Positions 19,816 through 49,552 are shown, counted from the first letter of the stretch. The stretch: DNA of 64,000 nt from Candidatus Aminicenantes bacterium (GCA_963773685.1 CAVZBY010000005.1:72709-136708), one strand, 5' to 3'. The notes: generated by a model not told the origin, from the letters alone. A program made the numbers and translations.

Positions 19816-19851
19816 CTGTCTCGCTTGTCTCGCACATCTCGCCTGTCCCGC
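19816..19851 (-). repeat. tandem 9-nt array (GCGAGAC-NN) x4
   Basis: Plus strand reads ctGTCTCGC ttGTCTCGC acATCTCGC ctGTCCCGC. Confidence 0.8.
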
Positions 19852-19860
19852 GCCTCGGCG

Positions 19861-19889
19861 TTGCCGGGTTCCTTTAAATGTATTATTAT
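19861..19889 (+). promoter_or_regulatory. candidate sigma70-type promoter of the LPS-kinase gene
   Basis: TTGCCG (19861-19866), 17-nt spacer, TATTAT (19884-19889), 30 nt before the ATG at 19919. The -35 box is in 9-nt register with the upstream array. Confidence 0.4.
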
Positions 19890-19918
19890 GACGGGCGAGG
19901 AGCGATCCCCGCCCGACG

Positions 19919-20815
19919 ATGACCAACGAAAAACAACGAACTGTCGGCCTCCAAGCGCCCGAGCCGACGGACGATTCCCCGCGGCAGGGCCCGCCGGCCT
20001 TCGCCGCCGTCGATATCGTCCTCGGAGCCTATCACGGCGCTTTGAATCCCGATATCGACGCGCCCGCGTTCCGCTCCGCCCTGGCCCACCCTGCGGCCCT
20101 CGCTGAAGGCCCTTCCGCCCGCGTCCTCCTCGACCGGCGCAATCTCGTGGCGGTCGCCTCCGTCCCCGCCGGGCCCTCCGGCCGCGCCGACGCCGTCGTC
20201 AAGATGTTCCGCGTCTCGGGCTTCAAGCGTCTCAAAACGCTCCTCGTCCCCGGCAAGGCCGCCCGCGCCTGGCGCGGGGCCTTAGCCTGCCGCGCCCGCG
20301 CGGTCCCGACGCCCCTCCCCATGGCCTACCTCGAGCGCCGCGTCCGCGGCTTCGTCGTCGAGGGCTTCTACCTTTCCGCCTACCTTCCCGACGCCGTCGA
20401 GATCCGGTCGCTTCTCCGCGAGCTTCCGCCCGACGATCTCGGCCGGCTCCTCGCCGGGCTGGCGAAGTTCCTCGTCTTCTGCCATAACGAGGGGATCCTC
20501 CACCGCGATCTCTCGGACGGGAATATCCTCGTCCGCTCGCCCCGGCCGGGCGCCTACGACCTCTGGCTCATCGATACGAACCGCATCCGCGTCCGGCGCT
20601 CGATCCCCGTCCTCGTCCGTCTCCGGAACCTCGTCCGGCTGGGCGTCCCCGCCGCCTACCAGGACCTTTTCCTCCGCTGTTACCTCGGCGACAGCCGCGC
20701 CTCCCGGGCCCTCTTCCTCTGGTACCGGGCGAACAAAGCCTGGTATTCCGGCGTCATCGCCCTCAAGAGGAAGCTCCGCCTGCGCCGTCTCGCCGAGCGC
20801 CTCGGGATCCAGTGA
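19919..20815 (+). CDS. lipopolysaccharide kinase family protein (Kdo/WaaP/InaA-like)
   Basis: 298 aa with the kinase catalytic loop ILHRDLSDGNILV and LWLIDTNR; sits in an LPS-core gene context. Confidence 0.7.
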   Translation: MTNEKQRTVGLQAPEPTDDSPRQGPPAFAAVDIVLGAYHGALNPDIDAPAFRSALAHPAALAEGPSARVLLDRRNLVAVASVPAGPSGRADAVVKMFRVSGFKRLKTLLVPGKAARAWRGALACRARAVPTPLPMAYLERRVRGFVVEGFYLSAYLPDAVEIRSLLRELPPDDLGRLLAGLAKFLVFCHNEGILHRDLSDGNILVRSPRPGAYDLWLIDTNRIRVRRSIPVLVRLRNLVRLGVPAAYQDLFLRCYLGDSRASRALFLWYRANKAWYSGVIALKRKLRLRRLAERLGIQ

Positions 20816-20816
20816 C

Positions 20817-22175
20817 ATGAGCTTCCCGTTCGAGTGGAACCCTCTGGCCGATCAGCCGCACAACGTCGCCCCGCGGTCCGAGCGCTTCCGCCATCACCTT
20901 CGCCATGCCGGAAGCTATTTCGAGATCGCCGGCGCAAACCTCCGCCGCCTCGGACCCGGCCTGCTCCGCTACCGCCGCGCGATGAAGCGCCTCTATCGCG
21001 AGCCGGTCGCCATTCCGCCCGGCGCCTTCGGCTGTGCCGTCTCGCCCGCGCCCGTCCCGGGCTCCGTCCCCGGCCGCGCGCCCACCGCCGCCGGCGACGC
21101 CCAGGTCCTCGACTTGTTCGGCGAGACCGGAGCCTCGCGGGCCCTCGTCCGCCTCGCCTCATGGGAGCGCCGGGACGGAGACCTCGCCGCCCGCGAGGCC
21201 TTCGTCCGCGGCCTCCGCGCCCGGGGGGTCGATGTCATTCTCGCGCTCCTCCAGCGCCGCGCCGACGTCCTCGACCCCGGCTCCTGGCGCGCCTTCCTCG
21301 AGGAGGCGTTCGGTCGCTTCGCCCCCCTCGTCTCGGCGTTCGAGATCGGCCACGCCTGGAACCGGACGAAGTGGGGGGTCTGGGACCATCGGGAATACCT
21401 AGGCCTTGCCGCGCCCGCCTTCGAGCTGGCCCCGCGGTTCGGCGTGAAGCTCGCCGGCCCGGCCGTCATCGACTTCGAGTTCCATCTTTACGCCGTGACC
21501 CTGCCGCGACTGCCGTTCGACGCCGTGACCTCGCTTCTCTACGTCGACCGGATGGGCGCGCCCGAGAACGGTCAGTGCGGCTGGACCGCGGAGAAGAAGC
21601 TGGCCCTGCTCAAGGCCGCCGTGGACACCACGGCGCGCCCCGGGGCGGGGCGGGGCCTCTGGATCACCGAGGTCAACTGGCCCCTCGCCGGCACGGGCGC
21701 GTTCTCTCCGGCCGCGGGCAGGCCCAACGTCGGCGAGGACGAACAGGCCGATTTCCTCGTCCGCTATTATGTTCCCTGCCTGGCCTCGGGCCACGCCGAA
21801 CGCGTCTATTGGTGGCAGCTCGTCGCGCCCGGCTACGGCCTCGTAGACGATCGCGAGAGCCCCTGGCGGCGGCGCCCGGCCTTCCGCGCCTTCGCGGAAC
21901 TCCGCCGCCGGCTCGAAGGAAGCGTTTTCGAAGGGCGCGGGACGGACAGGGGCGGCGCGGCGGAGGCGTCAGGCATCGAGGTCTTCCGCTTCCGCGGAGA
22001 AGGGGGAGCCTTCGCGATCTGCTGGGCGCCCGGCGGGGGGCCCGCCGAGCTCGTCCCGACGGCGCCGGTCGCCGCCGTGTTGGATCGCGAAGGCCGCGAG
22101 ATCCCCGGCGCTTCCGCGGCGCCTCGCAAGATCGTCGTCGACGGGAGCCCGAAATATGTCCTCTTCGAAGAATAG
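20817..22175 (+). CDS. hypothetical protein, possibly a TIM-barrel glycoside-hydrolase-like fold
   Basis: 452 aa with coding-like composition. LWITEVNWP resembles a GH clan-A nucleophile strand, but no NEP acid/base motif was seen. Confidence 0.55.
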   Translation: MSFPFEWNPLADQPHNVAPRSERFRHHLRHAGSYFEIAGANLRRLGPGLLRYRRAMKRLYREPVAIPPGAFGCAVSPAPVPGSVPGRAPTAAGDAQVLDLFGETGASRALVRLASWERRDGDLAAREAFVRGLRARGVDVILALLQRRADVLDPGSWRAFLEEAFGRFAPLVSAFEIGHAWNRTKWGVWDHREYLGLAAPAFELAPRFGVKLAGPAVIDFEFHLYAVTLPRLPFDAVTSLLYVDRMGAPENGQCGWTAEKKLALLKAAVDTTARPGAGRGLWITEVNWPLAGTGAFSPAAGRPNVGEDEQADFLVRYYVPCLASGHAERVYWWQLVAPGYGLVDDRESPWRRRPAFRAFAELRRRLEGSVFEGRGTDRGGAAEASGIEVFRFRGEGGAFAICWAPGGGPAELVPTAPVAAVLDREGREIPGASAAPRKIVVDGSPKYVLFEE

Positions 22176-22866
22176 AACCTCGTCCCCGAAGCCCTTCGAC
22201 CGCCCCGGCGTCGCCGATTACGAGAGGCGCCGGTACAGGGGCCTCGATCAGAAGCTCGTGGATCTCCGCGAACGGCGTCTCCTGCGCCGCGCGTTCGCCC
22301 GGCTCCGGGCCTTGGATCCCGACGCCTGGGCCGCCCCGGTCGGACCCCTCGTCCTCGACGCGCCCTGCGGCTACGGCCGGTTCACCGGGCTCATCCTCGG
22401 GGAGGGCGCCCGGCTCGTTTCTGCCGACCTCGCCCGTCCGATGATCGAGCGCGCCCTCGAAGAACGGGACCGCGCCCGTCATCTCGGCGGGGCCGCGGCG
22501 GACCTGCGCGGCGGACTCCCGTTCAAGTCCGCCGCCTTCGGCTACGTCTTCTCGATGCGCCTTTTCCATCACCTTCATCTCCCCGAGGACCGGCGCGCCG
22601 TCCTTCGGGAGCTTGCCCGCGTCGCGTCGGGCGGCGTGATCATGTCCTTCTACCGGTTCCGAGGCCTGCACGCCCTCCAGCGCCGCCTCCGCCGCCTTCT
22701 CAAGCCGAGCCGCCGCGACATCAGGATGATGGCGGAGGAGACCTTCGAGCGCGAAGCCGCCGAAGCCGGTTTCGTCGTCGACAGGACCTATCCGCTCTTC
22801 CGCGGCATACATGCCCAGCATATCGTTATCCTGAGGAGGGGGTCAGGCCCTTACAAAAAAAAATAA
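22156..22866 (+). CDS. class I SAM-dependent methyltransferase
   Basis: 236 aa with LVLDAPCGYGRFTG (motif I). It overlaps the previous gene by 20 nt. The last codons (GSGPYKKK*) are encoded by a palindromic element. Confidence 0.8.
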   Translation: MSSSKNRTSSPKPFDRPGVADYERRRYRGLDQKLVDLRERRLLRRAFARLRALDPDAWAAPVGPLVLDAPCGYGRFTGLILGEGARLVSADLARPMIERALEERDRARHLGGAAADLRGGLPFKSAAFGYVFSMRLFHHLHLPEDRRAVLRELARVASGGVIMSFYRFRGLHALQRRLRRLLKPSRRDIRMMAEETFEREAAEAGFVVDRTYPLFRGIHAQHIVILRRGSGPYKKK

Positions 22867-22886
22867 ATCTTAGGACCTGACCCCTC
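22836..22886. repeat. GGGGTCAGG/CCTGACCCC palindromic element (long form)
   Basis: gagggggtcaggccctta-caaaaaaaaataaatc-ttaggacctgacccctc. Confidence 0.8.
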
Positions 22887-22910
22887 TTGTTCTATACTAA
22901 AGAGAGGACC

Positions 22911-24143
22911 ATGAAACGCTCGATCATCGGCTTTCTGGTTATCGCCGTCTTGTCGACGACAGCCGGGCTTCCCGCCGTGGCCCAGGAAAAGCCCTCTCCG
23001 ACCTTCAAGATCCTGGTCACCGCGGAGCAGGCCAACATCCGGGATACACCCGACATCGGGAGCCCCATCGTCCAACAGCTCCCCGAGGGCTCCATCCTCG
23101 AAGCCGAGAAGAAGCAGGGCGAATGGTATCTCGTCCGGTTCACCCGCGACGACGGACTTGCCGCCCGTGGCTACATTCATGAAAGCCTGGTCCGGGAACT
23201 CGAGGCCGTGCCGGCCATGCCCGTCGAAGAGGTCCGGCGGGAGCCGGTGAAGAAGGTCGAGGAGAAGCCCGAGCCCGCCGCCGTCGCGCCCGCGCGCCGG
23301 GAACCCGAGCGCGCCGAGGACCGTCCCGAGCCGCCGCGCCCCGCGCCCCGGCGCGTCTCCGCCGCGCTCCCCGAGGCCAAGACCTTCGGGTTCTCGCTCC
23401 TCACCGGCGCCAATTTCGCGGCGGTCGGCGACCTCAACACCGGCGCCCGGGGCCTGGCGGACTATTATCGGGCAGCGCTGGGCATCACCGAAACGGGCGG
23501 CGTCGGGGGACTCCATCTGACCTATATCCTGGGGGCCGAGATCTCCTACAGCCTGATGCCCGGGCTCTTCGCGACGCTCGGCCTGGACTATTTCTCCGGG
23601 AGACGCTCGAGCCTCCTGGAGTTCGCCTCCGGACCCGCCGCCGACTCTCTCCTGACGCGCCCGCGCATCCAGGCCCTCCCCGTCAAGCTCGGGCTGGCCT
23701 ATTACCCCGTTCCCTATCTTTACCTCAAGGGCGGGCTCCAGTATTACTTCGTCTCGGTCAACTATCTCTACCGCTACGAGAAGTCCCTCTTCTGGCAGGA
23801 GTGGCAGGGCGACGCCCAGGCCCGCGGGATCGGGGCGTCGGTCGGGGCGGGCGGGGAGTATGAGCTCTATCCGGGCCTCTTCCTCGTCGGCGAGGCCGAG
23901 TTCCGGTTCGCCCGCTTCGGGGGCTTTACCGGCAAGGACATCACGATCAACTCCGAGGGCGAATCCTACACGGAACAGGGGACCCTCACCTATTTCCTGG
24001 CCGAGGTCGCCGGCCAGGGCGGCTATCCGCTCGTCTTCATCCGCGGCGACCTCCCGTCCGGGCCCGGCGTGAGCGAGGCCCGCGAGGCGCGCGTCAACCT
24101 CAACGGCATGTCGCTCAAGTTCGGGATCCGCGTCCGGTTCTGA
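22911..24143 (+). CDS. secreted SH3b-domain protein with a C-terminal outer-membrane beta-barrel
   Basis: The ATG at 22911 follows the RBS agagagga. Signal peptide MKRSIIGFLVIAVLSTTAGLPAVAQ, an SH3b-like region (ANIRDTPDIGSPIVQQLPEGSILEA...GEWYLV), a Pro/Glu-rich linker, alternating beta-strands and a terminal F. Confidence 0.7.
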   Translation: MKRSIIGFLVIAVLSTTAGLPAVAQEKPSPTFKILVTAEQANIRDTPDIGSPIVQQLPEGSILEAEKKQGEWYLVRFTRDDGLAARGYIHESLVRELEAVPAMPVEEVRREPVKKVEEKPEPAAVAPARREPERAEDRPEPPRPAPRRVSAALPEAKTFGFSLLTGANFAAVGDLNTGARGLADYYRAALGITETGGVGGLHLTYILGAEISYSLMPGLFATLGLDYFSGRRSSLLEFASGPAADSLLTRPRIQALPVKLGLAYYPVPYLYLKGGLQYYFVSVNYLYRYEKSLFWQEWQGDAQARGIGASVGAGGEYELYPGLFLVGEAEFRFARFGGFTGKDITINSEGESYTEQGTLTYFLAEVAGQGGYPLVFIRGDLPSGPGVSEAREARVNLNGMSLKFGIRVRF

Positions 24144-24174
24144 CCTGCGTCCCGGAAGAGCCGAGGGACGCAGG
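24144..24174 (+). terminator. stem-loop directly after the OMP gene stop (no U-tract)
   Basis: CCTGCGTCCC-N11-GGGACGCAGG, a perfect 10-bp stem. The right arm is shared with the REP at 24167-24192. Confidence 0.35.
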
Positions 24175-24192
24175 CTGAAGCCTGCGGCTACA
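24167..24192 (-). repeat. REP element
   Basis: gac-GCAGGC-TGAA-GCCTGC-GGCTACa. Confidence 0.8.
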
Positions 24193-24312
24193 GGAAGAAG
24201 ATCGCGTTTGGCTGTCGGCGACGCCTGGGGCTCCAGCTAACGATGTCCCCGGATCCTTCGCAGTCGATCTCTGCCGCTTGACGCAGGCCGCCGATGGGCG
24301 GAGAACGCAGGC

Positions 24313-28617: not shown

Positions 28618-28676
28618 AATCGCGTGTTTCGTGGGCTACTCCAATGCGAAGAGTCGATGGAGTATAGCATAAAAGA

Positions 28677-28694
28677 GCGAGACAGGCGAGACGG
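28677..28694 (+). repeat. tandem 9-nt array (GCGAGAC-NN) x2
   Basis: GCGAGACag GCGAGACgg, upstream of carA. Confidence 0.7.
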
Positions 28695-28710
28695 GAGGGC
28701 CGGGGCGGAT

Positions 28711-28738
28711 TGTAGCCGCAAGCTAAAGCCCGAGGCTC
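28711..28738 (+). repeat. REP element (diverged hairpin)
   Basis: tGTAGCC-GCAAGC-TAAA-GCCCGAGGC. Confidence 0.6.
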
Positions 28739-28773
28739 AGCGCGGGGCTTGCTTTTCTTGAGGAGGCTTTTAC

Positions 28774-28807
28774 CTGGCTCGCGTCTCGCGAGTCTCGCTA
28801 GTCTTGC
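28774..28807 (-). repeat. tandem 9-nt array (GCGAGAC-NN), about 4 units, one shortened to 7 nt
   Basis: Plus strand reads ctGGCTCGC GTCTCGC gaGTCTCGC taGTCTTGC. It overlaps the stop and last codons of the DUF1573 gene. Confidence 0.7.
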
Positions 28808-29568
28808 TTGTCCAGCTCTTTCTCATACTTATCGAACAGGGCCTTGAGATCCTTCTTCGTGATGATGTAGCGGCTGATGTAGATCGAGAGCGAGGCGCGG
28901 ACAGGGTCGTTGGACTTGACGAGGATATAGTCCCGGAGCATCCCCGTCCGGCCGGGGGCCGGGAACCGGACCTCGAGCTCGACATCGCGGCCGGCCGCGA
29001 GGCTCATCGGGAATACGGCGGGCTTCCCTCCCGCGAAGAACTTGAAATCGGGGTGGGCGATCTCGATCTTGAGCTCGAGCTCGCCGACGCTTCGGACCCT
29101 GAACCGGGTGGACGTCGCCTCCCCTTCGAGGCTCAGCCCGAGGTCGGCGTTGTAGCGGTCGAGCTCGATCTTGGGCTGGGGCGGAACGTCGATCTCGGCC
29201 GTGACCTTGAGCTCCCGTCGCCGGCCCGAGGCGTCGTTCGACTCGACATAGACGTATTTGACGACGCTGCCCGCGTAACCTCGCGTGTCGAAGGAGGCCT
29301 TGATGCGGCCTTCCTTGCCCGGAGGGATCCGGTCCTCGGAAGCGAGCGCGGCCGTACAGCCGCACGACGTCGCCACGTTTTCGATGACGAGCGGCGCGTC
29401 GCCTTCGTTGACGAAGACGAACTCGTGGGCGAGAACCTCCCCCTGCTTGACCTTGCCGAAGTCCCAGGTCTCCTCCTTGAACTTCGCACGGGCTTCCTTG
29501 CCCGCGGCCGCCGCCCAGTTCCCGAGCAGAATTATGCCAGCCATCGCGATGATCGTGGTTCTTCTCAT
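28798..29568 (-). CDS. DUF1573 domain-containing secreted protein
   Basis: Start MRRTTIIAMAGIILL (ATG at 29568, RBS GGAGGA). The hallmark DUF1573 motif is FVFVNEGDAPLVIENVATSCGCTAA, followed by a second Ig-like repeat. Confidence 0.8.
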   Translation of the reverse strand: MRRTTIIAMAGIILLGNWAAAAGKEARAKFKEETWDFGKVKQGEVLAHEFVFVNEGDAPLVIENVATSCGCTAALASEDRIPPGKEGRIKASFDTRGYAGSVVKYVYVESNDASGRRRELKVTAEIDVPPQPKIELDRYNADLGLSLEGEATSTRFRVRSVGELELKIEIAHPDFKFFAGGKPAVFPMSLAAGRDVELEVRFPAPGRTGMLRDYILVKSNDPVRASLSIYISRYIITKKDLKALFDKYEKELDKQD

Positions 29569-29588: not shown

Positions 29589-29617
29589 ATAATCGCATAC
29601 TTAGAAGGGCGAGACAA
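29589..29617 (-). promoter_or_regulatory. candidate sigma70-type promoter of the DUF1573 gene
   Basis: Minus strand: TTGTCT (29617-29612, part of the last 9-nt repeat unit), 17-nt spacer, GATTAT (29594-29589). Confidence 0.4.
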
Positions 29618-29644
29618 GCGAGGCTGGCGAGACAAGCGAGACTG
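29609..29644 (+). repeat. tandem 9-nt array (GCGAGAC-NN) x4
   Basis: GCGAGACaa GCGAGGCtg GCGAGACaa GCGAGACtg. Confidence 0.85.
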
Positions 29645-29736
29645 TAGAGGCGGCGCGAGAAAGATTCCCGATATCCGCCGTCTCTGATTATGAGCGGTGA
29701 ACATGAGGGTTGGCGCCTTATTGATGATCATAGCGC

Positions 29737-29754
29737 GTGTCTCGCTCGTCTCGC
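29737..29754 (-). repeat. tandem 9-nt array (GCGAGAC-NN) x2
   Basis: Plus strand reads gtGTCTCGC tcGTCTCGC. Confidence 0.7.
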
Positions 29755-29764: not shown

Positions 29765-29792
29765 TTGCGATTTCGCCGATTCTTGATATCAT
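29765..29792 (+). promoter_or_regulatory. candidate sigma70-type promoter of the usp gene
   Basis: TTGCGA (29765-29770), 16-nt spacer, TATCAT (29787-29792). The RBS GGAAGGAGG precedes the ATG at 29820. Confidence 0.4.
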
Positions 29793-31808: not shown

Positions 31809-34088
31809 GTGTCGCGATCGCTGGTCATCGTGGAATCGCCGGCCAAGGCGAAAACCATCAATCATTACCTGGGTTCGGGATACATCGTCAAGGCCTCCAT
31901 GGGCCATGTCCGGGACCTTCCCAAGAGCAAGATGGGGGTCGACGTCGAGCACGATTTCGCGCCCACCTACCAGGTCATCCCCGACAAGAAGAAGATCGTC
32001 GCCGAGCTGAAGAAGCTGGCCGCCGAGAGCGAGAGCATCATCCTGGCGGCCGACAACGACCGCGAAGGCGAGGCCATCTCCTGGCATCTCCGCGAGCTCA
32101 TCGGGGCCGAGAACCCGAAGGTCTTCCGGGCCGTCTTCAACGAGATCACCGAGGACGGCATCAAGAAGGCGTTCGAGCATCTCGGCGGGCTCGACATGCC
32201 CAAGATCGAGGCCCAGCAGACCCGGCGCATCCTCGACCGGCTCGTCGGATACCTCATCAGCCCGCTCCTCTGGAAGAAGATCGGCCGCGGCCTGAGCGCC
32301 GGCCGGGTCCAGTCGGTCGCCCTGCGGCTCATCTGCGACCGGGAGAAGGAGATCCGGGCCTTCGTCCCCGAGGAGTTCTGGAACGTCTCGGCCAGGCTCC
32401 GGGCGGCCAATCCGCCCGAGTTCAAGGCGGCTCTGGCGAAGATCGACGGCAAGAAGGCCAAGGTCGCGAACAAGGAGCAGGCCGACGCCGTCCTGGACGC
32501 CTGCAGGAAGGCGCCCTTCGTCCTCGAGGCGATCAAGGTCGAGGAGAAGCGGAAGACGCCGCTCCCTCCCTACATCACGAGCTCGCTCCAGCAGGACGCG
32601 TTCCGCCTCCTCCACTATCCGGTCAAGAAGACGATGTTCGTCGCCCAGAAGCTCTACGAGGGGCTGGAGATCGGCGAGCTCGGACAGACGGGGCTCATCA
32701 CCTACATGAGGACCGATTCGTTCCGCATCGCGGACGAGGCGCGGGGCGCGGCCCGGTCGTACATCGAGCGGACCTGGTCCCCGGCCTACGTCCCGTCCAA
32801 GCCCAACGTCTACAAGAACAAGAAGAAGGCCCAGGACGCCCATGAGGCCATCCGCCCGGCTCACCTCGACCTGCCGCCCGACAAGGTCAAGGAATACCTC
32901 AAGAAAGAGGAATACGACCTCTACAAGCTCGTCTGGAACAGGTTCATCGCCTCCCAGATGGCCCCGGCCGTCGTCGAGGAGACCGACTTCGACATCCGGG
33001 CCGCGAACTATCTCTTCAAGGCCAAGGGCGAGGTCCTCAAGTTCGAGGGCTTCCTGGCCGTGGCCCCGAACGGGAACGGGGACATGGACATCCTGCCCAA
33101 GGCGTTCGAGGGGGAGGTCCTGGCGCTCGTCGACGGCGAGGCCGGCGTCGAGGCCAAGCAGAGCTTCACCCAGGGGCCCGCCCGGTACACCGAGGGCACG
33201 CTGGTCAAGGAGCTGGAGGCCAAGGGCATCGGCCGGCCGAGCACCTACGCGCCCATCATCGCGACCCTCCAGAACCGGGTCTATGTCTCCCGGGACAAGG
33301 GCAAGTTCATCCCGACGGATCTGGGCATGGTCGTCACGGAATTCCTGGTCACGCACTTCCCCGAGCTCCTGGACGTGACCTTCACGGCCCGGATGGAGGA
33401 GGAGCTCGACCAGATCGGCGACGGCGAGCGGCCCTGGCTCGAGAGCCTCCGGGAGTATTACGCCGTCCTCGAAAAGTCCCTGAAGGCGGGCGGCGAGGCC
33501 GAGGACCTCAAGAGGACCGGCATCCCCATCGAAGAGAAGTGCCCCAAGTGCGGCAAGGACATGGTCATCAAGTCGGGGCGCTTCGGCCGGTTCAAGGCCT
33601 GCTCCGGCTATCCGGAGTGCACCCACAAGGAGGCCCTGGTCAAGAAGGAGACGAAGCCGCTCGACGAGAAATGCCCCCAATGCGGCGCTCCCCTCGTCAT
33701 CAAGTTCGGCCGCTTCGGCTCGTTCATCGCCTGTTCCTCCTACCCGAAGTGCAAGTACATCCAGAAGGACAAGGTCGACACCGGGATCGCCTGCCCCGAG
33801 GGATGCGGCGGCACCCTCGTCCGCCGGAAGACGCGCCGGGGCAAGTACTTCTTCGGCTGCAGCCTTTACCCGAAGTGCAAGTACGCGACGTGGGACGAGC
33901 CGGTGGCCAAGGCCTGCCCGTTATGCGGGCGGGCGTCCATCCTGAAGAAGAACTCCATCAAGGGCGATCCCTACCTCTATTGTCCGAACGAAAAATGCAC
34001 CTACAAGGAGATCGTCCCGCGGGAGAAGCTCTGGGAGCAGGACAAGGAGGGGCCCTCCGCCCCGCCGGCCGATGAGAAAAGCGATTGA
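31809..34088 (+). CDS. topA: DNA topoisomerase I (type IA) with four C-terminal zinc ribbons
   Basis: LVIVESPAKAKTI TOPRIM start, DNDREGEAISWH, the active-site region ITYMRTDS, and four CxxC...CxxC ribbons at the C-terminus; 759 aa. Confidence 0.95.
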   Translation: MSRSLVIVESPAKAKTINHYLGSGYIVKASMGHVRDLPKSKMGVDVEHDFAPTYQVIPDKKKIVAELKKLAAESESIILAADNDREGEAISWHLRELIGAENPKVFRAVFNEITEDGIKKAFEHLGGLDMPKIEAQQTRRILDRLVGYLISPLLWKKIGRGLSAGRVQSVALRLICDREKEIRAFVPEEFWNVSARLRAANPPEFKAALAKIDGKKAKVANKEQADAVLDACRKAPFVLEAIKVEEKRKTPLPPYITSSLQQDAFRLLHYPVKKTMFVAQKLYEGLEIGELGQTGLITYMRTDSFRIADEARGAARSYIERTWSPAYVPSKPNVYKNKKKAQDAHEAIRPAHLDLPPDKVKEYLKKEEYDLYKLVWNRFIASQMAPAVVEETDFDIRAANYLFKAKGEVLKFEGFLAVAPNGNGDMDILPKAFEGEVLALVDGEAGVEAKQSFTQGPARYTEGTLVKELEAKGIGRPSTYAPIIATLQNRVYVSRDKGKFIPTDLGMVVTEFLVTHFPELLDVTFTARMEEELDQIGDGERPWLESLREYYAVLEKSLKAGGEAEDLKRTGIPIEEKCPKCGKDMVIKSGRFGRFKACSGYPECTHKEALVKKETKPLDEKCPQCGAPLVIKFGRFGSFIACSSYPKCKYIQKDKVDTGIACPEGCGGTLVRRKTRRGKYFFGCSLYPKCKYATWDEPVAKACPLCGRASILKKNSIKGDPYLYCPNEKCTYKEIVPREKLWEQDKEGPSAPPADEKSD

Positions 34089-34957
34089 GGAGTTTCTCGC
34101 CCATCTCGAACACGAGAGGAACGCCTCCCCCCATACCGTCGCCGCCTACGGCCGGGACCTCGGCCAGCTCGCCGCCTACCTCGATGAGGCCCGGGCCGGC
34201 TGGAAGACCGCCGATAACGTCGTCCTGCGCGGCTTCCTCGCCCGCCTTTACGAAGGCCGGCGGAAGAAAACGTCCATAGGCCGCAAGCTCGCGGCCATAC
34301 GCTCCTTCTATGATTATGCGGTGCGGCGGAAATGGCTCGCCGACGAATCCCGCCCGGGTCCTGGCGACCCCGCGCGCCGAGAAGCGGGTGCCGTCGTTCC
34401 TTTCCGAGGACGAGATGGCCCGATTCCTGGACCTCCCTTCCTCCGACCGTCCCCTCGACCTCAGGGACAAGGCCCTCCTCGAGCTCCTCTACGCTTCCGG
34501 GATCCGGGTCGGCGAGCTCGTGGCCATCGATCTCGCCGACGTGGGCTTCGCCGAGCGTCTCGTCCGGGTGAGAGGCAAGGGCAAGAAGGAGCGTCTTGTC
34601 CCGTTCGGCCGTTCGGCCGCGGCGTCGCTCGAGGCCTGGCGCCGGGTCCGGGTCGAAGGGCCGCGGGAGCGGGCCGACGCGGACGCCCTCTTCCTCAATT
34701 ACCGGGGAGGGCGGCTGACGTCGCGCTCCGTGGAACGGATCGTCGCGAAGTACATCCGGCGGACCGCCGTCGCCCGGCATATCAGCCCCCACTCGCTCCG
34801 CCATTCGTTCGCTTCGCATCTCCTCGGCCGCGGGGCCGATCTCCGGACCATCCAGGAGCTCCTCGGGCACGCGAGCCTCGCCACCACCCAGAAGTACACG
34901 CACATGGATCTCAAACAGCTCCTCGACGTCTATCGAAAAAGCCATCCGAGATCATAA
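34072..34957 (+). CDS. xerC: site-specific tyrosine recombinase XerC/XerD family, interrupted by a frameshift near 34344-34347
   Basis: N-terminal SAM-like domain MRKAIEEFLAHLEHERNASPHTVAAYGRDL... (ORF 34072-). The catalytic domain in ORF 34310-34957 has ...RVRGKGKKERLVP..., HSLRHSFASHLL and LLGHASLATTQKYTH. Lies in dprA-topA-xerC synteny. Confidence 0.9.
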
Positions 34958-35002
34958 GGTTAGGATCGCCTTCGAAGGACTCAGGGGCATCCCTTGTTAC
35001 GG

Positions 35003-35227
35003 CGCCGGCTGGGAATATAGCTCAGACGGGACGGCCTCGCTCCCGGTCGGAGGGCGCGGAGGCCGCCCCTTGACCCCAGACCCAGGAACCTCTTCGGGTT
35101 CCCCCATCGCAAGAGCGATGGGCCCCCTTCCCAACTGGGTTTACGGGGCGACGCTCCTTGCCCTATTTTGATGGTTGGCCTTTGATCCCGTCCGCTCGCC
35201 CGCTCCCGTCTGAGCCTCCAGCCGGCG
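35003..35227. other. 225-nt highly structured element (candidate ncRNA or MITE); strand undetermined
   Basis: The ends pair perfectly: CGCCGGCTGG/CCAGCCGGCG (10 bp) and GCTCAGACGGGA/TCCCGTCTGAGC (12 bp). Internal nested hairpins are GGAACC-tcttcg-GGTTCC, CCCATCGC-aaga-GCGATGGG and CCCAG...CTGGG, plus GCCCC...GGGGC enclosing them. Confidence 0.5.
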
Positions 35228-42380: not shown

Positions 42381-42401
42381 GTCCTTGAAGCTCCCCCCCT
42401 C

Positions 42402-42462
42402 CCGTCTCGATACTCTCGTCAATCTCGCTCGAATGGGGAGGCGCCAGTCTCGCGCGTCTCGC
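42402..42462 (-). repeat. tandem 9-nt array (GCGAGAC-NN), 3 + 2 units split by 16 nt
   Basis: Plus strand reads ccGTCTCGA taCTCTCGT caATCTCGC -16 nt- caGTCTCGC gcGTCTCGC. Confidence 0.7.
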
Positions 42463-42469: not shown

Positions 42470-42499
42470 TAGACACGGGCGGCGGGCTGGTGATAAAAT
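42470..42499 (+). promoter_or_regulatory. candidate sigma70-type promoter of eno
   Basis: TAGACA (42470-42475), 18-nt spacer ending in TGa, TAAAAT (42494-42499). The RBS GAGGAG precedes the ATG at 42536. Confidence 0.4.
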
Positions 42500-44264: not shown

Positions 44265-44294
44265 TTGACAGAGCCATTTCTGTAGTGGTATATG
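44265..44294 (+). promoter_or_regulatory. candidate sigma70-type promoter of the Rrf2 regulator gene
   Basis: TTGACA (44265-44270), 18-nt spacer ending in TGg, TATATG (44289-44294). Confidence 0.5.
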
Positions 44295-44307
44295 ACATTG
44301 TCGATTG

Positions 44308-44323
44308 AATTAGTCGACTAATT
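44308..44323. promoter_or_regulatory. perfect 16-bp palindrome, candidate operator (Rrf2 autoregulation?)
   Basis: AATTAGTCGACTAATT, located between the predicted -10 box and the ATG at 44336. Confidence 0.5.
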
Positions 44324-44335
44324 AGGCCAAGCGAA

Positions 44336-44770
44336 ATGAAACTATCGACCAAGGGCGAATACGCGAGCCGGGCGATGCTGGAGCTTGCCCTCAAGTATGA
44401 CCGGGGGCCCCAGCATATCATCAAGATCTCCCGGGCCCAGGCCATCCCCCAACGGTTCCTCGAACAGATCCTGCTCCTCCTCAAGAGGGCGGGCTATCTC
44501 AAGAGCAAGAAGGGCCCGAAGGGCGGCTATTACCTGGCGAAACCCCCCGCCGAGATCAATGTGGCCGAGGTCATCCGGGTCCTCGAAGGCCCCCTCGCCC
44601 CCATCGATTGCGTCAGCGTCATGGCCCACGAGCCGTGCCCGATGGAGGCGACCTGCGGCCTGCGCTGGCTGTGGAAGGATGTCCGGGACTCGGTGGCGGA
44701 GATCCTGGAGCGGACGACCTTCGCCGATCTCGTCCGGCTGAACGGTCCCATCAATGATCCGGATGAATAA
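44336..44770 (+). CDS. Rrf2-family transcriptional regulator (IscR/CymR-like, three-Cys cluster-ligand pattern)
   Basis: MKLSTKGEYASRAMLELA..., an HTH region (ISRAQAIPQRFLEQILLLLKRAGYLKSKKGPKGGYYLA), and Cys-x8-Cys-x5-Cys (DCVSVMAHEPCPMEATCG). Confidence 0.9.
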   Translation: MKLSTKGEYASRAMLELALKYDRGPQHIIKISRAQAIPQRFLEQILLLLKRAGYLKSKKGPKGGYYLAKPPAEINVAEVIRVLEGPLAPIDCVSVMAHEPCPMEATCGLRWLWKDVRDSVAEILERTTFADLVRLNGPINDPDE

Positions 44771-44775
44771 AAGAT

Positions 44776-44811
44776 GCGAGACGGGCGAGACAAGCGAGAG
44801 AAGCGAGACGA
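44776..44811 (+). repeat. tandem 9-nt array (GCGAGAC-NN) x4
   Basis: GCGAGACgg GCGAGACaa GCGAGAGaa GCGAGACga, starting 6 nt after the Rrf2 stop. Confidence 0.85.
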
Positions 44812-44866
44812 GAGGCCCATTAGGGCATTTTTTGGAGAATGACTGATGGTCGGTGCGGGTTCGAAA

Positions 44867-44929
44867 TGTAGTCGCAGGCTTCAGCCTGCGTTTTAAAAAG
44901 AAGCCTCAGGCTGAAGCCTGAGGCTGCAT
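44867..44929. repeat. REP inverted doublet
   Basis: tGTAGTC-GCAGGC-TTCA-GCCTGC-g (44867-44890), then GCCTCAGGC-TGAA-GCCTGAGGC-TGCAt (44903-44929). Confidence 0.8.
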
Positions 44930-44943
44930 GAAGGAAGCTCGAG

Positions 44944-45963
44944 ATGAGGAGGAACCAGATGAACCGGATGATGCGGACGAAGAGGCTGGGGGCGGCGGCG
45001 GCGATGCTACTGCTTCTCGCGGGCGCGGCCTTCGCCCAGGACAAGGAAAAGGACAAGAAGGAATCTCCTTCCCTGGCCATCAGCAAGGCCTTCAAGCTCA
45101 GCGGCTGGACCCAGGTCCAGTACGTGGATTGGAAGACCGGGATGGACAGTTTCTCGGTCCGGCGGTCGCGACTGACCTTGAGCGGCGACATCATGAAGAA
45201 CATGCACTACAAGATCCAGATGGACATCGCCAAGACCCCGACCCTCCTCGACGCCAGCGTGGACTACGAGTTCTCCAAGGCCGTCCAGCTCCGGGTCGGC
45301 CAGTTCATGGTCCCTTTCAGCCTCGAGAACGTGACGGGCACCTCGGACATCGACATGATCAACCGGTCCCAGCCCGAGGAAAAGCTCGTCCCCGGCCGCG
45401 ATAACTCCGCCCAGGGCCGTGACGTCGGTGTTTCGGTCTTCGGGACATATTCCGTCGTCGATTACACCGCGGCCATCCTCAACGGAGCCGGGATCAACAA
45501 GGCCGACACGAACAGCCACAAGGACCTGGCCGGACGCGTCGTCTTCCGGCCTATCGACCACCTGGCGGTCGGCGGCTCCGTTTATCTGGGCAAGCAGAGC
45601 GCTGCCGCGGAGGCCCCGCTCGTCAAGCGCGACAAGGCCGGACTCGAGCTCGCCCTGGTCTATCCCCGCGCCTCGCTCAAGGCGGAGTACTACTTCGCCA
45701 AGGACGACACGATCTCCCGGGACGGCTGGTACGTCCAAGGCGGGTACTTCGTCCTCCCCAAGAAGGTCCAGGTCCTTCTCAAGGCCGACGCCCTCGATAT
45801 GAACCGGGACCTCGACGGCGACCGGATCAACCGGTATTCGGCCGGCGTCAACTGGTTCATCGCCGGCCGGACGAAGCTCCAGGTCAATTACGAGATCTAC
45901 GACGGCGAGCTCGAGAAGAACGACAACCACGCCATCCTGGCCCAATTCCAGGTGGCGTTCTGA
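44944..45963 (+). CDS. phosphate-selective porin O/P family outer-membrane protein
   Basis: Signal peptide ...AAAMLLLLAGAAFAQ; LSGWTQVQY...RRSRLTLSG...VGQFMVPFSLE; terminal F. The more likely start is the ATG at 44959, which follows the RBS GAGGAGG. Confidence 0.8.
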   Translation: MRRNQMNRMMRTKRLGAAAAMLLLLAGAAFAQDKEKDKKESPSLAISKAFKLSGWTQVQYVDWKTGMDSFSVRRSRLTLSGDIMKNMHYKIQMDIAKTPTLLDASVDYEFSKAVQLRVGQFMVPFSLENVTGTSDIDMINRSQPEEKLVPGRDNSAQGRDVGVSVFGTYSVVDYTAAILNGAGINKADTNSHKDLAGRVVFRPIDHLAVGGSVYLGKQSAAAEAPLVKRDKAGLELALVYPRASLKAEYYFAKDDTISRDGWYVQGGYFVLPKKVQVLLKADALDMNRDLDGDRINRYSAGVNWFIAGRTKLQVNYEIYDGELEKNDNHAILAQFQVAF

Positions 45964-45997
45964 GAGGCGGTCCCGGACCGCGAATAAGGAGAGCATC

Positions 45998-46966
45998 ATG
46001 AAGAAAGCGTTCGTCGCGGCCCTCGCGGCCGTATCCCTGCTGGCCCCCGCGGCCGGCGTGTCCTTCGGGCAGTCCGGAAGCCCCGTTTCCGGCAACCTCA
46101 GCCTCTCAGGAGCCTGGGCCCTCTACCCGATGGCCCTGAAGTGGGTCGAGGAGTTCCAGAAGCTCCATCCGGGCGTCCGGATCGACGTCCAGGCCGGCGG
46201 CGCGGGCAAGGGCATCGCCGACGCCCTGGCGGGCATGGTGGACGTCGGCATGGTCTCCCGCGAGATCAATCCGGCCGAGCTCGAGAAGGGCGCGTTCGCC
46301 GTCGCCGTCACCAAGGACGCCGTGGTTCCCACCCTCAGCGCCCGGCACCCGCTCCTCAAAGAGCTCCTGGCGCGGGGCCTCAAGAGAGAGGAGTTCATCG
46401 GACTCTGGATCACGAAGACCGTCACGTCCTGGGACGCCCTTCTCGGCCGCAAGGGCAAGGCCGAAGCCCACGTCTATACGCGGTCCGACGCCTGCGGCGC
46501 GGCCGAGACCTGGGCCGCTTACATGGGGAAGAAGCAGGAGGACCTCGGCGGGGTCGGCGTTTACGGCGATCCCGGCCTGGCCGACGCGGTCAAGAGGGAC
46601 CCGCTCGGGGTCGGATTCAACAACGTGAACTTCGCCTACGACGCCAAGAGCCTCAAGCCCGTCGCGGGCATCGTCATCCTTCCCATCGATCTCGACGGGA
46701 ACGGGAAGATCGACCCGGCCGAGAGCGTTTACGCGACGCGGAACGACGTCACGAAGGCCATCGCGGACAACGTCTATCCGTCGCCGCCCGCCCGGGACCT
46801 CTATTTCGTCACCAAGGGCAAGCCGGCGAAGCCGGCCCTCGTCGCGTTCCTGAAGTGGGTCCTGACGGAAGGCCAGAAATACGTTCCGGAAACCGGCTAC
46901 ATCCCCCTGAGCGAGGCCAAGCTGGCGGAAGGGCTGGACAAGATCGGGGCGGCTGGGGCAAAATAA
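45998..46966 (+). CDS. pstS: phosphate ABC transporter substrate-binding protein
   Basis: Signal peptide, GSGAG-like region (QAGGAGKGIADALAGMVDVGMVSRE), 322 aa, upstream of pstCAB. Confidence 0.88.
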   Translation: MKKAFVAALAAVSLLAPAAGVSFGQSGSPVSGNLSLSGAWALYPMALKWVEEFQKLHPGVRIDVQAGGAGKGIADALAGMVDVGMVSREINPAELEKGAFAVAVTKDAVVPTLSARHPLLKELLARGLKREEFIGLWITKTVTSWDALLGRKGKAEAHVYTRSDACGAAETWAAYMGKKQEDLGGVGVYGDPGLADAVKRDPLGVGFNNVNFAYDAKSLKPVAGIVILPIDLDGNGKIDPAESVYATRNDVTKAIADNVYPSPPARDLYFVTKGKPAKPALVAFLKWVLTEGQKYVPETGYIPLSEAKLAEGLDKIGAAGAK

Positions 46967-46973
46967 GCGGACC

Positions 46974-47860
46974 ATGAGGCTCTTCAAGGACGTCTTCGCC
47001 AGGAAGACGATGTTCCTGGTGACGCTCGTTCCGAGCGTCCTGGTCCTGCTCATCATCTTCGGGCTCTACCAGAAATCCAAGGCGCTCCTGGGGCTCAAAT
47101 CCCTGGGGACGCTCCTCTTTTCCACGACCTGGTCGCCGCTCAAGGGCGAATTCGGCTTCCTGCCCTTCATCATGGGCACCCTGTGGGTGACGGCCGTCGC
47201 CCTGGTCATCGCCATCCCCGTCTCCCTGTTCACGGCCATCTATCCTCTCGGAGTACGCCCCGAAGGTCTTCCGGGAGCTCGCCAAGCCGGTCATCGACCT
47301 GCTCGCCGGCATCCCCTCGGTCGTCTTCGGGGTTTGGGGCATCATGGTCATCGTCCCCTTCGTCGGCAACGTCCTGGCCCCGCTCTTCGGCGTCTACTCC
47401 AGCGGCTACAGCATCCTGGCCGGCGGCATCGTCCTGGCCATCATGATCTTCCCGACCATCATCCACGTCTCGCTCGAGGTTTTTGCCTCGATCCCCGTCG
47501 CCCTCCGGGAAACGTCCCTCTCCCTCGGCGCGACCCGGTGGGAGACGGTCCGCCACGTCGTCCTCCGGAAGGGCGCCCAGGGGATCCTGGCCGCGGCCAT
47601 CCTCGGCCTGTCCCGGGCGTTCGGCGAAACCATGGCCGTGCTCATGGTCGTCGGCAACGTCCCCTTGGTCCCCAAGTCCCTGTTCCAGCCCGGATACCCC
47701 CTGCCGGCCCTCATCGCCAACAATTACGGGGAGATGATGTCCATCCCCCTCTATGACTCGGCCCTGATGCTGGCCGCCCTGGTCCTTCTCGCCGTCGTCC
47801 TTGTCGCCAGCATCCTCGGGCCGCTGGATCCTGGTCAAGGCGGAACGGAGGGCCGAATGA
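46974..47860 (+). CDS. pstC: phosphate ABC transporter permease PstC, interrupted by a frameshift at about 47244 and probably a second at about 47821
   Basis: ...VSLFTAIY / [32 protein letters not shown]... (EAA-type permease). After removing one C near 47821 the C-terminus reads ...[16 protein letters not shown], with the TGA at 47858-47860 overlapping the pstA ATG (ATGA). Confidence 0.8.
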
Positions 47861-48736
47861 AGCTCGAGACGAGCCCGGCCCATCTCCGCCGCCGGCGGAT
47901 GGTCGAGACCACCGCCCGGGTCCTGATGATCGGCTCGACGGCCCTCGTCATCGGGAGCCTCCTGGCCATCATCGGGGTCATCGTCTGGAAGAGCCTGCCC
48001 GTCCTGAACCTCGACATGATCACCCGGACGCCCAAGGGCGGCTATTACCTGGGCAAGGAAGGCGGCATCCTCAACGCCATCATCGGCTCGCTCTACCTCG
48101 GGGTGGGGGCGACGGCCCTGGCCCTCGTCTTCAGCCTGCCCATCGTCCTCTACCTGAACCTCTATACGAAGAAGAAATCCCGCATCGCCGAACCTGACGC
48201 GCTTCGCCTTCGACGTCCTCTGGGGCATTCCGTCCATCGTCTACGGCGCCTTCGGCTTCGTCCTGATGATGGCCCTCGGCCTCCGGGCCTCGCTCCTGGC
48301 CGGGATCATCACGGTCGCCCTGCTCGAGCTCCCCATCATGTGCCGGGCCATCGACGAGGTCATGGTCCTCGTCCCCCGGGAGCTCACGGACGCCTCCTCG
48401 GCCCTCGGGGCGACGCGGCTCGAGACCGCCCTCAAGGTCGTCATCCGCCAATGCATGCCCGGCATCCTGACGGCCATCCTCATCGCCTTCGGGCGGGGGA
48501 TCGGCGACGCGGCCTCGGTCCTGTTCACGGCCGGGTTCACCGACCGCATCCCGACCTCGCTCCTCCAGCCGGCGGCGACGCTCCCCCTGGCCATCTTCTT
48601 CCAGCTGGGGACGCCCTTCCCGGAGGTCCAGCAGAGGGCCTACGCTTCGGCGGCCGTCCTGACGCTCCTCATCCTCCTCATCAGCCTCGCCTCCCGCCTC
48701 CTCATCAAGCGGCTCACGAAGCACGTCATCAAATGA
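47857..48736 (+). CDS. pstA: phosphate ABC transporter permease PstA, interrupted by a frameshift at about 48190
   Basis: [24 protein letters not shown]...[10 protein letters not shown] / [30 protein letters not shown]..., continued in ORF 48266-48736. Confidence 0.85.
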
Positions 48737-48750
48737 GAGACAGGTAAGCC

Positions 48751-49512
48751 ATGGAAGAACGAACGCATATCAGCATCCGGGACCTCAACGTGTATTACGG
48801 GGGGCTCCAGGTCCTCAAGGGCATCAGCCTGGACATCCCCGACCGGAAGATCACGGCCATCATCGGGCCGTCCGGCTGCGGCAAGACGACCCTCCTCAAG
48901 TCGCTCAACCGGCTCCTGGACACGGTCGACGGGGTGCGGGTGGACGGGAAGATCCTCGTCGACGGCGAGGACATCTACGGCCCGAAGGTCGAGGTGACGG
49001 CGGTCCGGAAGAAGATGGGGCTCCTGTCCCAGAAGCCCCAGGTCCTGCCGATGTCCATCTTCGACAACGTCGCCTACGGGCCGAAGCTGCACGGCGTCAA
49101 GAACAAGGCCCGGCTGGATTTCATCGTCCGGAACCACCTGGTCGAGGCGGGCCTGTGGGACGAGGTCAAGGACCGGCTCCACCATCCCGCGTCGCGCCTC
49201 TCGGTCGGCCAACAGCAGAGGCTGTGCCTCGCCCGGGGCCTGGCCGTCGGGCCCGAGATCATCCTCGGGGACGAGCCGACCTCGGCCCTCGACCCCCAGT
49301 CGAGCCAGCACGTCGAGCGGAAGCTCGTCGACCTCAAGAACGACTACACGGTCATCGTCGTCACCCACATCCTCCGCCAGGCCCGGCGCATCGCGGACTA
49401 CGTGGTGTTCCTGTACCTCGGCGAGCTCGTCGAGCACGGCCCGGCCGAGGAGATCTTCTCGAACCCGAAGAACCCCCGCACGCGGGCCTACATGACCGGC
49501 GAGATCAGCTGA
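48751..49512 (+). CDS. pstB: phosphate ABC transporter ATP-binding protein
   Basis: Walker A GPSGCGKTT, signature LSVGQQQRLCLARG, Walker B ILGDEPTSALD; 253 aa. Confidence 0.95.
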   Translation: MEERTHISIRDLNVYYGGLQVLKGISLDIPDRKITAIIGPSGCGKTTLLKSLNRLLDTVDGVRVDGKILVDGEDIYGPKVEVTAVRKKMGLLSQKPQVLPMSIFDNVAYGPKLHGVKNKARLDFIVRNHLVEAGLWDEVKDRLHHPASRLSVGQQQRLCLARGLAVGPEIILGDEPTSALDPQSSQHVERKLVDLKNDYTVIVVTHILRQARRIADYVVFLYLGELVEHGPAEEIFSNPKNPRTRAYMTGEIS

Positions 49513-49516
49513 AGAA

Positions 49517-49552
49517 GCGAGGCGGGCGAGACGCGCGGGACAGGCGAGACGC
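49517..49552 (+). repeat. tandem 9-nt array (GCGAGAC-NN) x4
   Basis: GCGAGGCgg GCGAGACgc GCGGGACag GCGAGACgc, starting 5 nt after the pstB stop. Confidence 0.8.

Follow-up and report, generated by a model that had tools for sequence, protein, structure and literature searches.

Which kind of element places short, strictly phased tandem arrays between the ordinary genes of an uncultivated bacterium? The stretch of DNA analyzed here, referred to as the window, comprises 64,000 nucleotides of Candidatus Aminicenantes bacterium (GCA_963773685.1, CAVZBY010000005.1:72709-136708) with a G+C content of ~65%. An inspection limited to this DNA itself (the sequence-only reading) had reported head-to-tail copies of a 9-nt unit, GCGAGAC-NN, at eight loci and left open whether they represent a regulator or nucleoid-protein binding array, an RNA motif, or the footprint of a mobile or recombination system. 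We confirm the GCGAGAC-NN arrays and find more structure in them than the first description gave: they form the core, variable in length, of a small polar interspersed repeat of ~45-90 bp. Within one narrow Aminicenantes lineage, copies of this module lie at gene boundaries that are otherwise unrelated, and whole modules have been gained or lost between close strains. With a probability of roughly 0.55, we favor an insertion-prone interspersed repeat module that is copied to gene edges within a narrow lineage over a fixed set of regulator sites.

Array phasing and location

The two-unit pattern GCGAGACNNGCGAGAC, with at most two mismatches, has 22 matches in the window versus 2.48 ± 1.54 in dinucleotide shuffles (maximum 7), bearing out the enrichment over shuffled controls that the sequence-only reading had anticipated. 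The eight reported loci hold 17 of these matches. By comparison, the single 7-mer is barely enriched (32 copies, 20 of them within arrays, versus 23.6 ± 4.7 in shuffles), and the signal is therefore the head-to-tail 9-nt phasing and not the word itself. Exact 9-nt spacing accounts for 19 close same-strand unit pairs while every other spacing is found at most three times, a period that is indeed unlike that of response-regulator boxes. Coordinates and unit counts of the original description agree with ours at seven loci. At the remaining one (42402-42462), described as three plus two units, the two canonical units at 42447-42462 stand, but the distal three are shortened TCTCG cores ~10 nt apart. 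A ninth family member with one degenerate unit, located at 3691-3722, was absent from that description, as were the conserved flanks of the arrays.

Among 92 units from the window lineage, the core G-C-G-A-G-A-C has an information content of 1.5-2.0 bits per position, inflated by the requirement of at most one mismatch for unit detection. The 2-nt spacer varies with a purine bias (AA, AG, GG, GA), and the unit can therefore be written as GCGAGAC-RR, consistent with the near-invariant core and variable last two positions noted before. The arrays can be searched for as GCGAGACNN in at least two copies plus the tail GNGAGG..GTCAAGGC, with (GTCTCGCTT)4 as the four-unit form. All arrays lie outside gene calls with the sole exception of array 3, which enters the DUF1573 gene at 28798-28807, so that the earlier statement that the arrays are intergenic or clip only last codons holds. 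Since gene calls cover at least 81% of the window, random placement would leave all eight outside genes with p < 2e-6. The genes beside the arrays are ordinary: a glycosyltransferase, a Kdo-kinase-like gene, carA, the DUF1573 protein, the Usp-dprA-topA-xerC group, a PAS histidine kinase, enolase, Rrf2, a phosphate porin, pstSCAB and dapF.

Anatomy of the repeat module

The module is polar. Read in the GTCTCGC direction, it consists of a tail TTGAC(N)..CCTCNC, one to five units GTCTCGC-YY, and a pyrimidine- and AT-rich head (YCTTYT..). In the GCGAGAC direction, the heads are purine-rich and RAAGR-rich (ATAAAAGA, TTAGAAGG, TAAAAGAT and TGAAGAA), and the tail GNGAGG joins the last unit without a spacer, followed 0-6 nt further on by GTCAAGGC or a close variant. 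This tail pattern, GNGAGG(N0-6)GTCAAGGC, is found directly after the last unit in 13 of its 15 matches, the remaining two being the single-unit copy and a chance match in coding sequence that is seen in two relatives. The tail also contains a -35-like TTGAC(N), located 8-9 nt from the first unit in the GTCTCGC direction (12 nt in one copy).

Tails face the intergenic interior while heads adjoin gene boundaries. In the spacers with two arrays (28677/28783 and 29609/29739), the arrays are inverted with their tails inward; our inverted-repeat tool misses these pairs because the variable spacers break its exact seeds. Solo arrays fold no better than shuffled sequence (z-scores of +0.4 to +1.4), a lack of structure that fits a linear binding platform, and inverted pairs do fold (z-scores of -2.8 to -3.7).

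Filled and empty sites in close relatives

We compared the window with 940 kb of contigs from relatives, syntenic ones included (L121, L122, L124-L127 and L130-L133 among them); orthologs of the DUF1573 protein of the window are from Aminicenantes/Acidobacteriota. The conservation in relatives that had been expected is confined to the closest of them, which hold all 31 arrays found, with none in ~800 kb of the more distant ones. Arrays of other 9-nt units were not found at the same sites in the more distant relatives; such 9-nt periods as occur there look coding or low-complexity.

Several sites are filled in some genomes and empty in others. In the window and in L131/L132, the Rrf2 stop codon leads into AAGAT, four units and GAGAGG. 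The site is empty in L130, with a 99% identical Rrf2, and in L133 (92%), both of which have only 14-29 nt from this stop to the start of the porin gene. The spacer between the DUF1573 gene and carA is 60 nt in L127 and has no array; the L127 protein ends in ...KELD* compared with ...KELDKQD* in the window, and the ends in relatives are KELD*, KELE* or KDLL*. Array 3, which supplies the extra codons, is found only in the window and L125. The core promoter of enolase is kept without an array in L122 and L127, and the spacer between the glycosyltransferase and kinase genes, which in the window spans 208 nt with two repetitive extragenic palindromes (REPs), array 1 and a promoter, measures only 21 nt in L122 and 70 nt in L124.

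Where arrays are shared, their position is kept and their length is not. Array 2 has the same position and register to the carA -10 box in L121, L122, L124 and L126. At array 4, the arrangement ...cgcTTGTCTCGC plus 14 nt plus GATTAT is kept in the window, L121, L122, L124 and L125, with one-base variants of the last unit in L126 and L127. The register to the -10 box at the carA and DUF1573 arrays is thus fixed across genomes with 82-98% identical proteins, while the number of units ranges from 1 to 4+4. Unit number at orthologous sites shifts in 9-bp steps: the Usp site has two units in the window, four in L125 and L126, two to three in L124, one in L122 and none in L121; the carA site has two in the window versus 4+4 in L126; and the pstB site has four in the window versus two in L133. 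In L125 and L126, an array, a ~29-nt spacer and a second array are found upstream of both carA and DUF1573, and L126 also has 64-65-nt tandem array modules with near-identical ‘spacers’. Filled and empty sites, 9-bp steps, flanks shared at unrelated loci and patchy lineages make the footprint of a mobile or recombination system the best supported of the possibilities raised at the outset.

One insertion in L126 carries a gene. At 3343-3925, a 23S_rRNA_IVP gene (PF05635, an Avd-like four-helix bundle) is inserted between a comEA-like terminator and the end of xerC, bracketed by one array on the left and three inverted tandem 64-65-nt modules on the right; L127 and L124 have nothing inserted at this site. 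We rejected a general link of the arrays to this gene because it occurs only in L126.

Individual arrays and neighboring promoters

Array 1 (19803-19851, minus strand; units 19818-19851) has the four units GCGGGAC AG, GCGAGAT GT, GCGAGAC AA and GCGAGAC, followed by the tail AGGAGCAATGAAGTC. Its head faces the promoter of the Kdo-kinase-like gene, a sigma-70-like site on the plus strand (TTGCCG-17-TATTAT, 19861-19889) that begins 9 nt past the head. Array 2 (28677-28702, plus strand; units 28677-28692) has two units and the tail GGGAGGGCCG, and a gap of 10 nt separates its head ATAAAAGA from the carA -10 box (TATACT, minus strand, 28661-28666, with an extended -10 TGc). Sharing its spacer, array 3 (28774-28807, minus strand) reads GCAAGAC TA, GCGAGAC TC, GCGAGAC and the tail GCGAGCC, comprising three units at 28783-28807 and a partial unit out to 28774, with bases 28798-28807 encoding the last three codons (KQD) and the stop of the DUF1573 gene. 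Array 4 (29609-29650, plus strand; units 29609-29642) has four units and the tail TGTAGAGG; its last unit with the TT spacer gives, on the minus strand, TTGTCT-17-GATTAT, a site absent from the promoter-scan list that we read manually as the likely DUF1573 promoter. Array 5 (29739-29754, minus strand) has two units, and its head is 10 nt upstream of the Usp promoter called by the promoter scan (TTGCGA-16-TATCAT, 29765-29792, plus strand). The xerC-like integrase gene beside topA in this region is split over two frames in the window (34072-35073), with the N-terminal SAM-like domain in frame from 34072 and the catalytic domain at 34310-34957. Relatives have a single gene of 294 aa; the split marks either a frameshifted pseudogene or an error in the sequencing.

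The composite array 6 (42385-42462, minus strand) joins its two canonical units and three shortened cores to the tail GGGAGG..TTCAAGGAC. The tail abuts the stop codon of the histidine kinase and the head is 7 nt upstream of the -35 box of the enolase promoter (TAGACA-18-TAAAAT, 42470-42499, plus strand; promoter scan). In array 7 (44771-44815, plus strand; units 44776-44809), the head AAGAT immediately follows the Rrf2 stop codon TAA and leads into four units and the tail GAGAGG. Array 8 (49513-49567, plus strand; units 49517-49550) starts with the head AGAA after the pstB stop TGA, and continues with four units and the tail GCGAGGTCGGTCAAGGC; it holds the 17-mer GCGAGACGCGAGGTCGG (49544-49560) that recurs in other phyla and, on the minus strand, TTGACC. 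The single-unit member (3691-3722, minus strand) is made of a tail with TTGACA, then TCCTCCG, the degenerate unit GGCGCGC and the head TCT-TAGTAT. In the promoter scan this copy is a 10-of-12 match to the sigma-70 consensus, TTGACA-17-TAGTAT, and it lies upstream of a gene resembling a REP-associated tyrosine transposase (RAYT). Overall, arrays 1, 5 and 6 end 9, 10 and 7 nt, respectively, upstream of the -35 hexamers of promoter-like sites, and arrays 3, 7 and 8 abut or overlap stop codons.

Two further observations concern array 7. A 22-codon open frame (44774-44842) has its ATG in the array head and runs through the array (MRDGRDKREKRDERPIRAFFGE*), and its counterpart in L131 (3951-4019) ends 1 nt before the porin start codon. 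It resembles the small bridging open reading frames (ORFs) of mycobacterial interspersed repetitive units (MIRUs) and was not seen at other arrays; a small ORF as a general array feature was rejected since the frame differs at pstB. The Rrf2-family regulator gene lies directly upstream of the phosphate-selective porin and pstSCAB (44336-49512). Given the gap of only 14-29 nt between Rrf2 and porin in relatives without the array, this looks like one operon, for which an Rrf2 regulator is an unusual partner in phosphate uptake.

Related arrays in other phyla

A cross-phylum scan, using one genome per species and requiring three perfect units, found at least 120 loci. Most high-GC matches among those listed are coding Gly-Glu-Thr or Ser-Glu-Thr repeats with identical spacers, which were set aside. 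A second class among the listed matches is non-coding with variable spacers, often at several loci per metagenome-assembled genome (MAG), and its hosts, again among the matches listed, include Syntrophobacterales and other Deltaproteobacteria, Nitrospira, Holophagales, Lentisphaeria and another Aminicenantes MAG. In the deltaproteobacterial MAGs, a foldback element of ~100 nt has the array as its left arm, and its right arm, when reverse-complemented, is two copies of GCGAGAC-GNGAGGTCGG. This same 17-mer (=GCGAGACGNGAGGTCGG) ends array 8 at 49544-49560. Paired arrays are also found in the Nitrospira and deltaproteobacterial MAGs.

The neighboring genes are ordinary here too: a Pfam scan of 84 ORFs beside non-coding arrays in other phyla revealed no recurrent family and no transposase. 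Searching plasmids and phages with the arrays using BLAST gave only chance matches (E ≥ 2), and the 27 loci with the three-unit pattern in viral contigs are nearly all perfect slippage-type or coding repeats, with nothing relevant among them. In some genomes, GCGAGAC arrays run into arrays of other units with a 9-nt period (L049 7700-7880, L083 5830-5930, L093 1978-2100, L016 and L017). These adjoining units (GGTTGATCT, CTGACTGGC, GGCGGGAAA, GGGCGAGTG and GGGTGGGAC) suggest a more general class of 9-nt-phased intergenic arrays. Elsewhere, the array makes up the last 10-15 codons of an ORF with a SETSET-type tail, as in MAGs of a gammaproteobacterium (L031 1944-1981), a Vampirovibrio (L046 2143-2189) and an Aminicenantes bacterium (L081 6233-6270), resembling the three-codon DUF1573 extension in the window.

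REPs and other repeats in the window

The RAYT-like gene (2842-3507, minus strand) encodes a 221-aa IS200-like Y1 transposase (PF01797, E = 3.6e-11) whose best NCBIfam match is REP_Tyr_transpos, below the cut-off, and it sits within a polysaccharide-synthesis cluster. The protein is the probable source of the ~15 GTAG-type REPs (TGTAGCCGCAGGCTTYAGCCTGCG) found across the window and a candidate trans-acting factor for them; any tie to the arrays would be conjecture. The window REPs (TGTAGCCGCAGGCTT..) are a family separate from the arrays, as the sequence-only reading stated, and this holds by sequence. In location, a GTAG-type REP lies 20-84 nt from the tail in four of the eight arrays, the other four have no REP nearby, and the RAYT-like gene is in the same window.

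Another separate repeat family has the motif GGGGTCAGG(T/C)C, found eight times in the window versus 2.6 expected, partly as inverted pairs at gene junctions (11170, 13650/13686, 17280, 18536 and 22839/22874). L122 carries a long palindrome of this kind as an insertion between Usp and DUF1573. An AT-rich gene-free stretch at 52840-53160 (local G+C ~0.59 in a 2-kb bin versus a window mean of ~0.65) has an 11-nt tandem repeat CTATTATATAT and palindromic AT runs, and lies between two small ORFs without a Pfam match.

Comparison with known systems

Neither an Rfam 15 scan of the whole window at the gathering threshold nor a tRNA scan gave a match. The claim that the arrays match no described element stands in part: literature searches for the 7-mer returned only noise, with no two-unit array in print among the sources searched, but similar paired arrays have been published for Geobacter metallireducens. 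We regard these as the closest precedent by analogy. That genome has intergenic multicopy arrays of three to five tandem 7-9-nt units in classes 1-3 (GTTGCTYN, TCTCCGTS[Y] and MTYCTGA), mostly as opposite-strand pairs at variable distance, which are species-specific, absent from a close relative, and were named ‘putative global regulator binding sites’ and left unexplained (Aklujkar et al. 2009, PMC2700814). Compared by published description, they share the anatomy of three to five tandem units, multiple copies, intergenic location and pairing, and their layout is that of the two inverted pairs in the window and the pairs in the Nitrospira and deltaproteobacterial MAGs. They differ in unit sequence, in the binding guessed for them (IHF/HU), and in having insertion sequences at fixed distance from the sites (PMC2700814).

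Among mobile elements, the arrays resemble bacterial interspersed mosaic elements (BIMEs) in being dispersed at gene ends and varying in presence between strains. Four of them may form mosaics with GTAG REPs, and the window has a RAYT-like gene, the putative promoter of which is itself a one-unit family member. In contrast to BIMEs, the arrays are non-palindromic and unfolded, and half have no REP nearby. RAYTs recognize a GTAG-plus-hairpin signature, which the arrays lack, and REP identity, which calls for an imperfect palindrome of 20-40 nt with a hairpin and a 5′ GTAG, was ruled out because they have no GTAG, no dyad symmetry and no fold as solo arrays. Small size, many copies and presence or absence between close strains are reminiscent of a miniature inverted-repeat transposable element (MITE). 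A MITE, a non-autonomous DDE transposon, should also have terminal inverted repeats and a target-site duplication; no duplication was identified at the Rrf2, carA and IVP pairs, solo modules have unlike ends, and inverted arrays are limited to two pairs in the window. In the IS607-family element IS1535, four 9-bp direct motifs nucleate a transposase filament, the subterminal repeats being bound cooperatively by transposase dimers, and there are neither terminal inverted repeats nor target-site duplications (Chen et al. 2018, PMC6188088). The anatomy of our arrays matches, with several short direct repeats near an end and neither of these two features identified, but this is a resemblance only; the IS1535 motifs are phased at ~10-11 bp while the arrays keep strictly to 9 bp, the sequences are unrelated, and no serine transposase or TnpB gene was found near the arrays in the window or among array neighbors in other phyla.

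A different set of parallels comes from protein-binding and promoter repeats. Ribbon-helix-helix operators, such as the 8-bp metboxes of MetJ and the 7-bp heptads of the omega protein, consist of 2-10 abutting direct or inverted repeats at promoters, without helical phasing, each bound by one dimer with cooperative contacts to its neighbors. Those are operators of few operons or plasmid genes, whereas the arrays are dispersed insertion-like modules; no ribbon-helix-helix gene turned up, though no search aimed at such genes was made. Simple sequence repeats in promoters can tune or switch transcription, as do the 7-bp repeats upstream of the Haemophilus hmw genes and the ToxR heptads at ctx. 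Like these, the array tract lies in or just upstream of promoters with a strain-variable copy number, and the one-unit copy places its unit within the 17-bp spacer between -35 and -10. Unlike them, the array units are non-identical owing to variable spacers, and the module is found at many housekeeping loci and gene 3′ ends. OmpR/PhoB-type boxes, an idea raised by the pst operon, were ruled out by the 9-bp instead of 10-11-bp period and by the unrelated housekeeping genes involved; the arrays are also absent at the same promoters in relatives, unlike such a regulon. CRISPR was likewise dismissed, in agreement with the earlier reading, given 9-nt units with two variable positions compared with repeats of 23-50 nt plus unique spacers of similar length; for the L126 modules, the near-identical ‘spacers’ speak against it. 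A coding peptide repeat (GET/SET) was excluded in the window, where, as previously judged, the arrays lie outside genes save for three last codons of one gene. The arrays are best filed among bacterial interspersed repeats built from tandem short units.

Proposed mechanism and alternative explanations

The conserved 7-mer, drifting spacer and fixed phase together lead us to infer that the array is probably a binding platform for a protein supplied in trans. Transposases on subterminal repeats and ribbon-helix-helix proteins on contiguous short repeats serve as models for such a platform, the arrays belonging to neither. Under the favored reading of an insertion-prone module, the protein would bind head to tail with one protomer per 9 bp, and this binding would spread or maintain the module, with units then gained or lost through slippage or unequal recombination. 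Effects on host genes would be by-products, including changes to promoter geometry (-35/-10 or upstream), codons added at C-termini, and long hairpins where copies are inverted. If the one-unit copy is a promoter, multi-unit copies would have the tail TTGAC 26, 35 or 44 bp from the head; since unit number sets this distance, it could also set or abolish promoter activity. A bolder version, which we consider doubtful, is that the arrays represent an undescribed cross-phylum class of non-autonomous mobile elements whose ends are arrays of 9-bp protein-binding units and which act as mobile promoter cassettes. Each cassette would carry a split promoter, with the -35 in the tail, the -10 in the head and the spacing set by unit number. 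It might follow a foldback or IS607-like logic with a different enzyme, making the cassettes tunable or switchable and able to rewire transcription at gene boundaries.

Several points weigh against the favored reading. No transposase or recombinase gene was found next to the arrays in the window or in other phyla, no binding protein was identified, and neither a target-site duplication nor clean terminal inverted repeats were identified at three filled/empty pairs (Rrf2, carA and IVP). The gene calls behind the intergenic placement are approximate, and the cross-phylum sample covers the matches listed and was seeded with the 7-mer of the window itself. Moreover, the fixed register to the -10 box at carA and DUF1573 would also be expected of a selected operator, and so an explanation by regulation keeps some weight, albeit as an unlikely one. 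It holds that the arrays are operators of a lineage-specific global transcription factor, a small protein on GTCTCGC every 9 bp at or upstream of the -35, that activates or represses many housekeeping promoters, with arrays at 3′ ends acting as looping or roadblock sites. Five of the eight arrays point as GTCTCGC toward the downstream gene, in three cases a -35 hexamer follows the array end by 7-10 nt, and at carA and DUF1573 the -35 overlap with fixed register to the -10 recurs in several relatives. The 7-mer is conserved while the spacer varies, and MetJ and the omega protein are known to use contiguous short-repeat operators of 2-10 copies. Against this, the sites arise as 40-190-bp insertions with shared flanks and not by point-mutational gain, three arrays are oriented into a gene whose stop codon they adjoin, and the genes concerned form no coherent set. 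Arrays are also absent from slightly more distant relatives with the same genes, and the same core and 17-mer are found in other phyla in 5′ untranslated regions (UTRs) and inside foldback repeats. The only regulator gene seen beside an array is Rrf2 (array 7), no screen for a cognate regulator having been made. Because core promoters persist intact without arrays in relatives, a conserved regulon is unsupported; a regulator or nucleoid-protein array, one of the initial suggestions, is plausible as the molecular role of the 7-mer.

The suggestion of an RNA motif in UTRs fared worse, and we consider an RNA element improbable. GUCUCGC repeats would then be Rho-loading or anti-Shine-Dalgarno sites, GCGAGAC repeats an unstructured purine leader or 3′ UTR, and inverted pairs terminator or RNase III hairpins. 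The minus strand of 28672-28812 does fold (z = -3.7), with a stem followed by UCUUU, the head and tail on the purine strand are Shine-Dalgarno-like (GGAGG, AGAAGG), and in deltaproteobacterial MAGs (L116, L059) and one of Planctomycetota (L016) only 17-25 nt separate the array from a downstream start codon, which places it in a likely 5′ UTR. Solo arrays, however, are unstructured (z > 0) with no helix within an array, there is no Rfam match, and both orientations occur relative to flanking genes and their transcription; arrays 1, 5 and 6 are upstream of promoter-like sites and so need not be transcribed. Neutral microsatellite-like slippage, by which arrays would have grown in place from chance seeds without dispersal, is the least probable explanation. 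It accords with the 9-bp steps in unit number between strains, with a native near-unit GCTGGAC-TA-GCG exactly at the start of array 3, and with the perfect slippage-type GCGAGAC-NN repeats, often coding, that are common in high-GC genomes and viral contigs. Yet neighboring units differ in spacer while the 7-mer is identical across loci, no other 9-mer shows such a pattern in the window or relatives, and the tail and head shared by unrelated loci largely refute it.

Significance

Short interspersed repeats shape promoters, terminators and operon structure and serve as strain markers, and they are almost undescribed outside a few model bacteria. The array family described here adds a searchable signature, a 7-mer in 9-bp phase plus a 17-mer, is gained and lost between strains at housekeeping promoters of an uncultivated phylum, and has signature relatives in other phyla from similar habitats. 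If no factor acts on the arrays, they add a further repeat family, selfish or neutral, of local interest. If a binder or transposase is tied to them, it would explain the Geobacter tandem-repeat sites that have been unexplained since 2009, and would represent a new way for mobile DNA to change promoter geometry.

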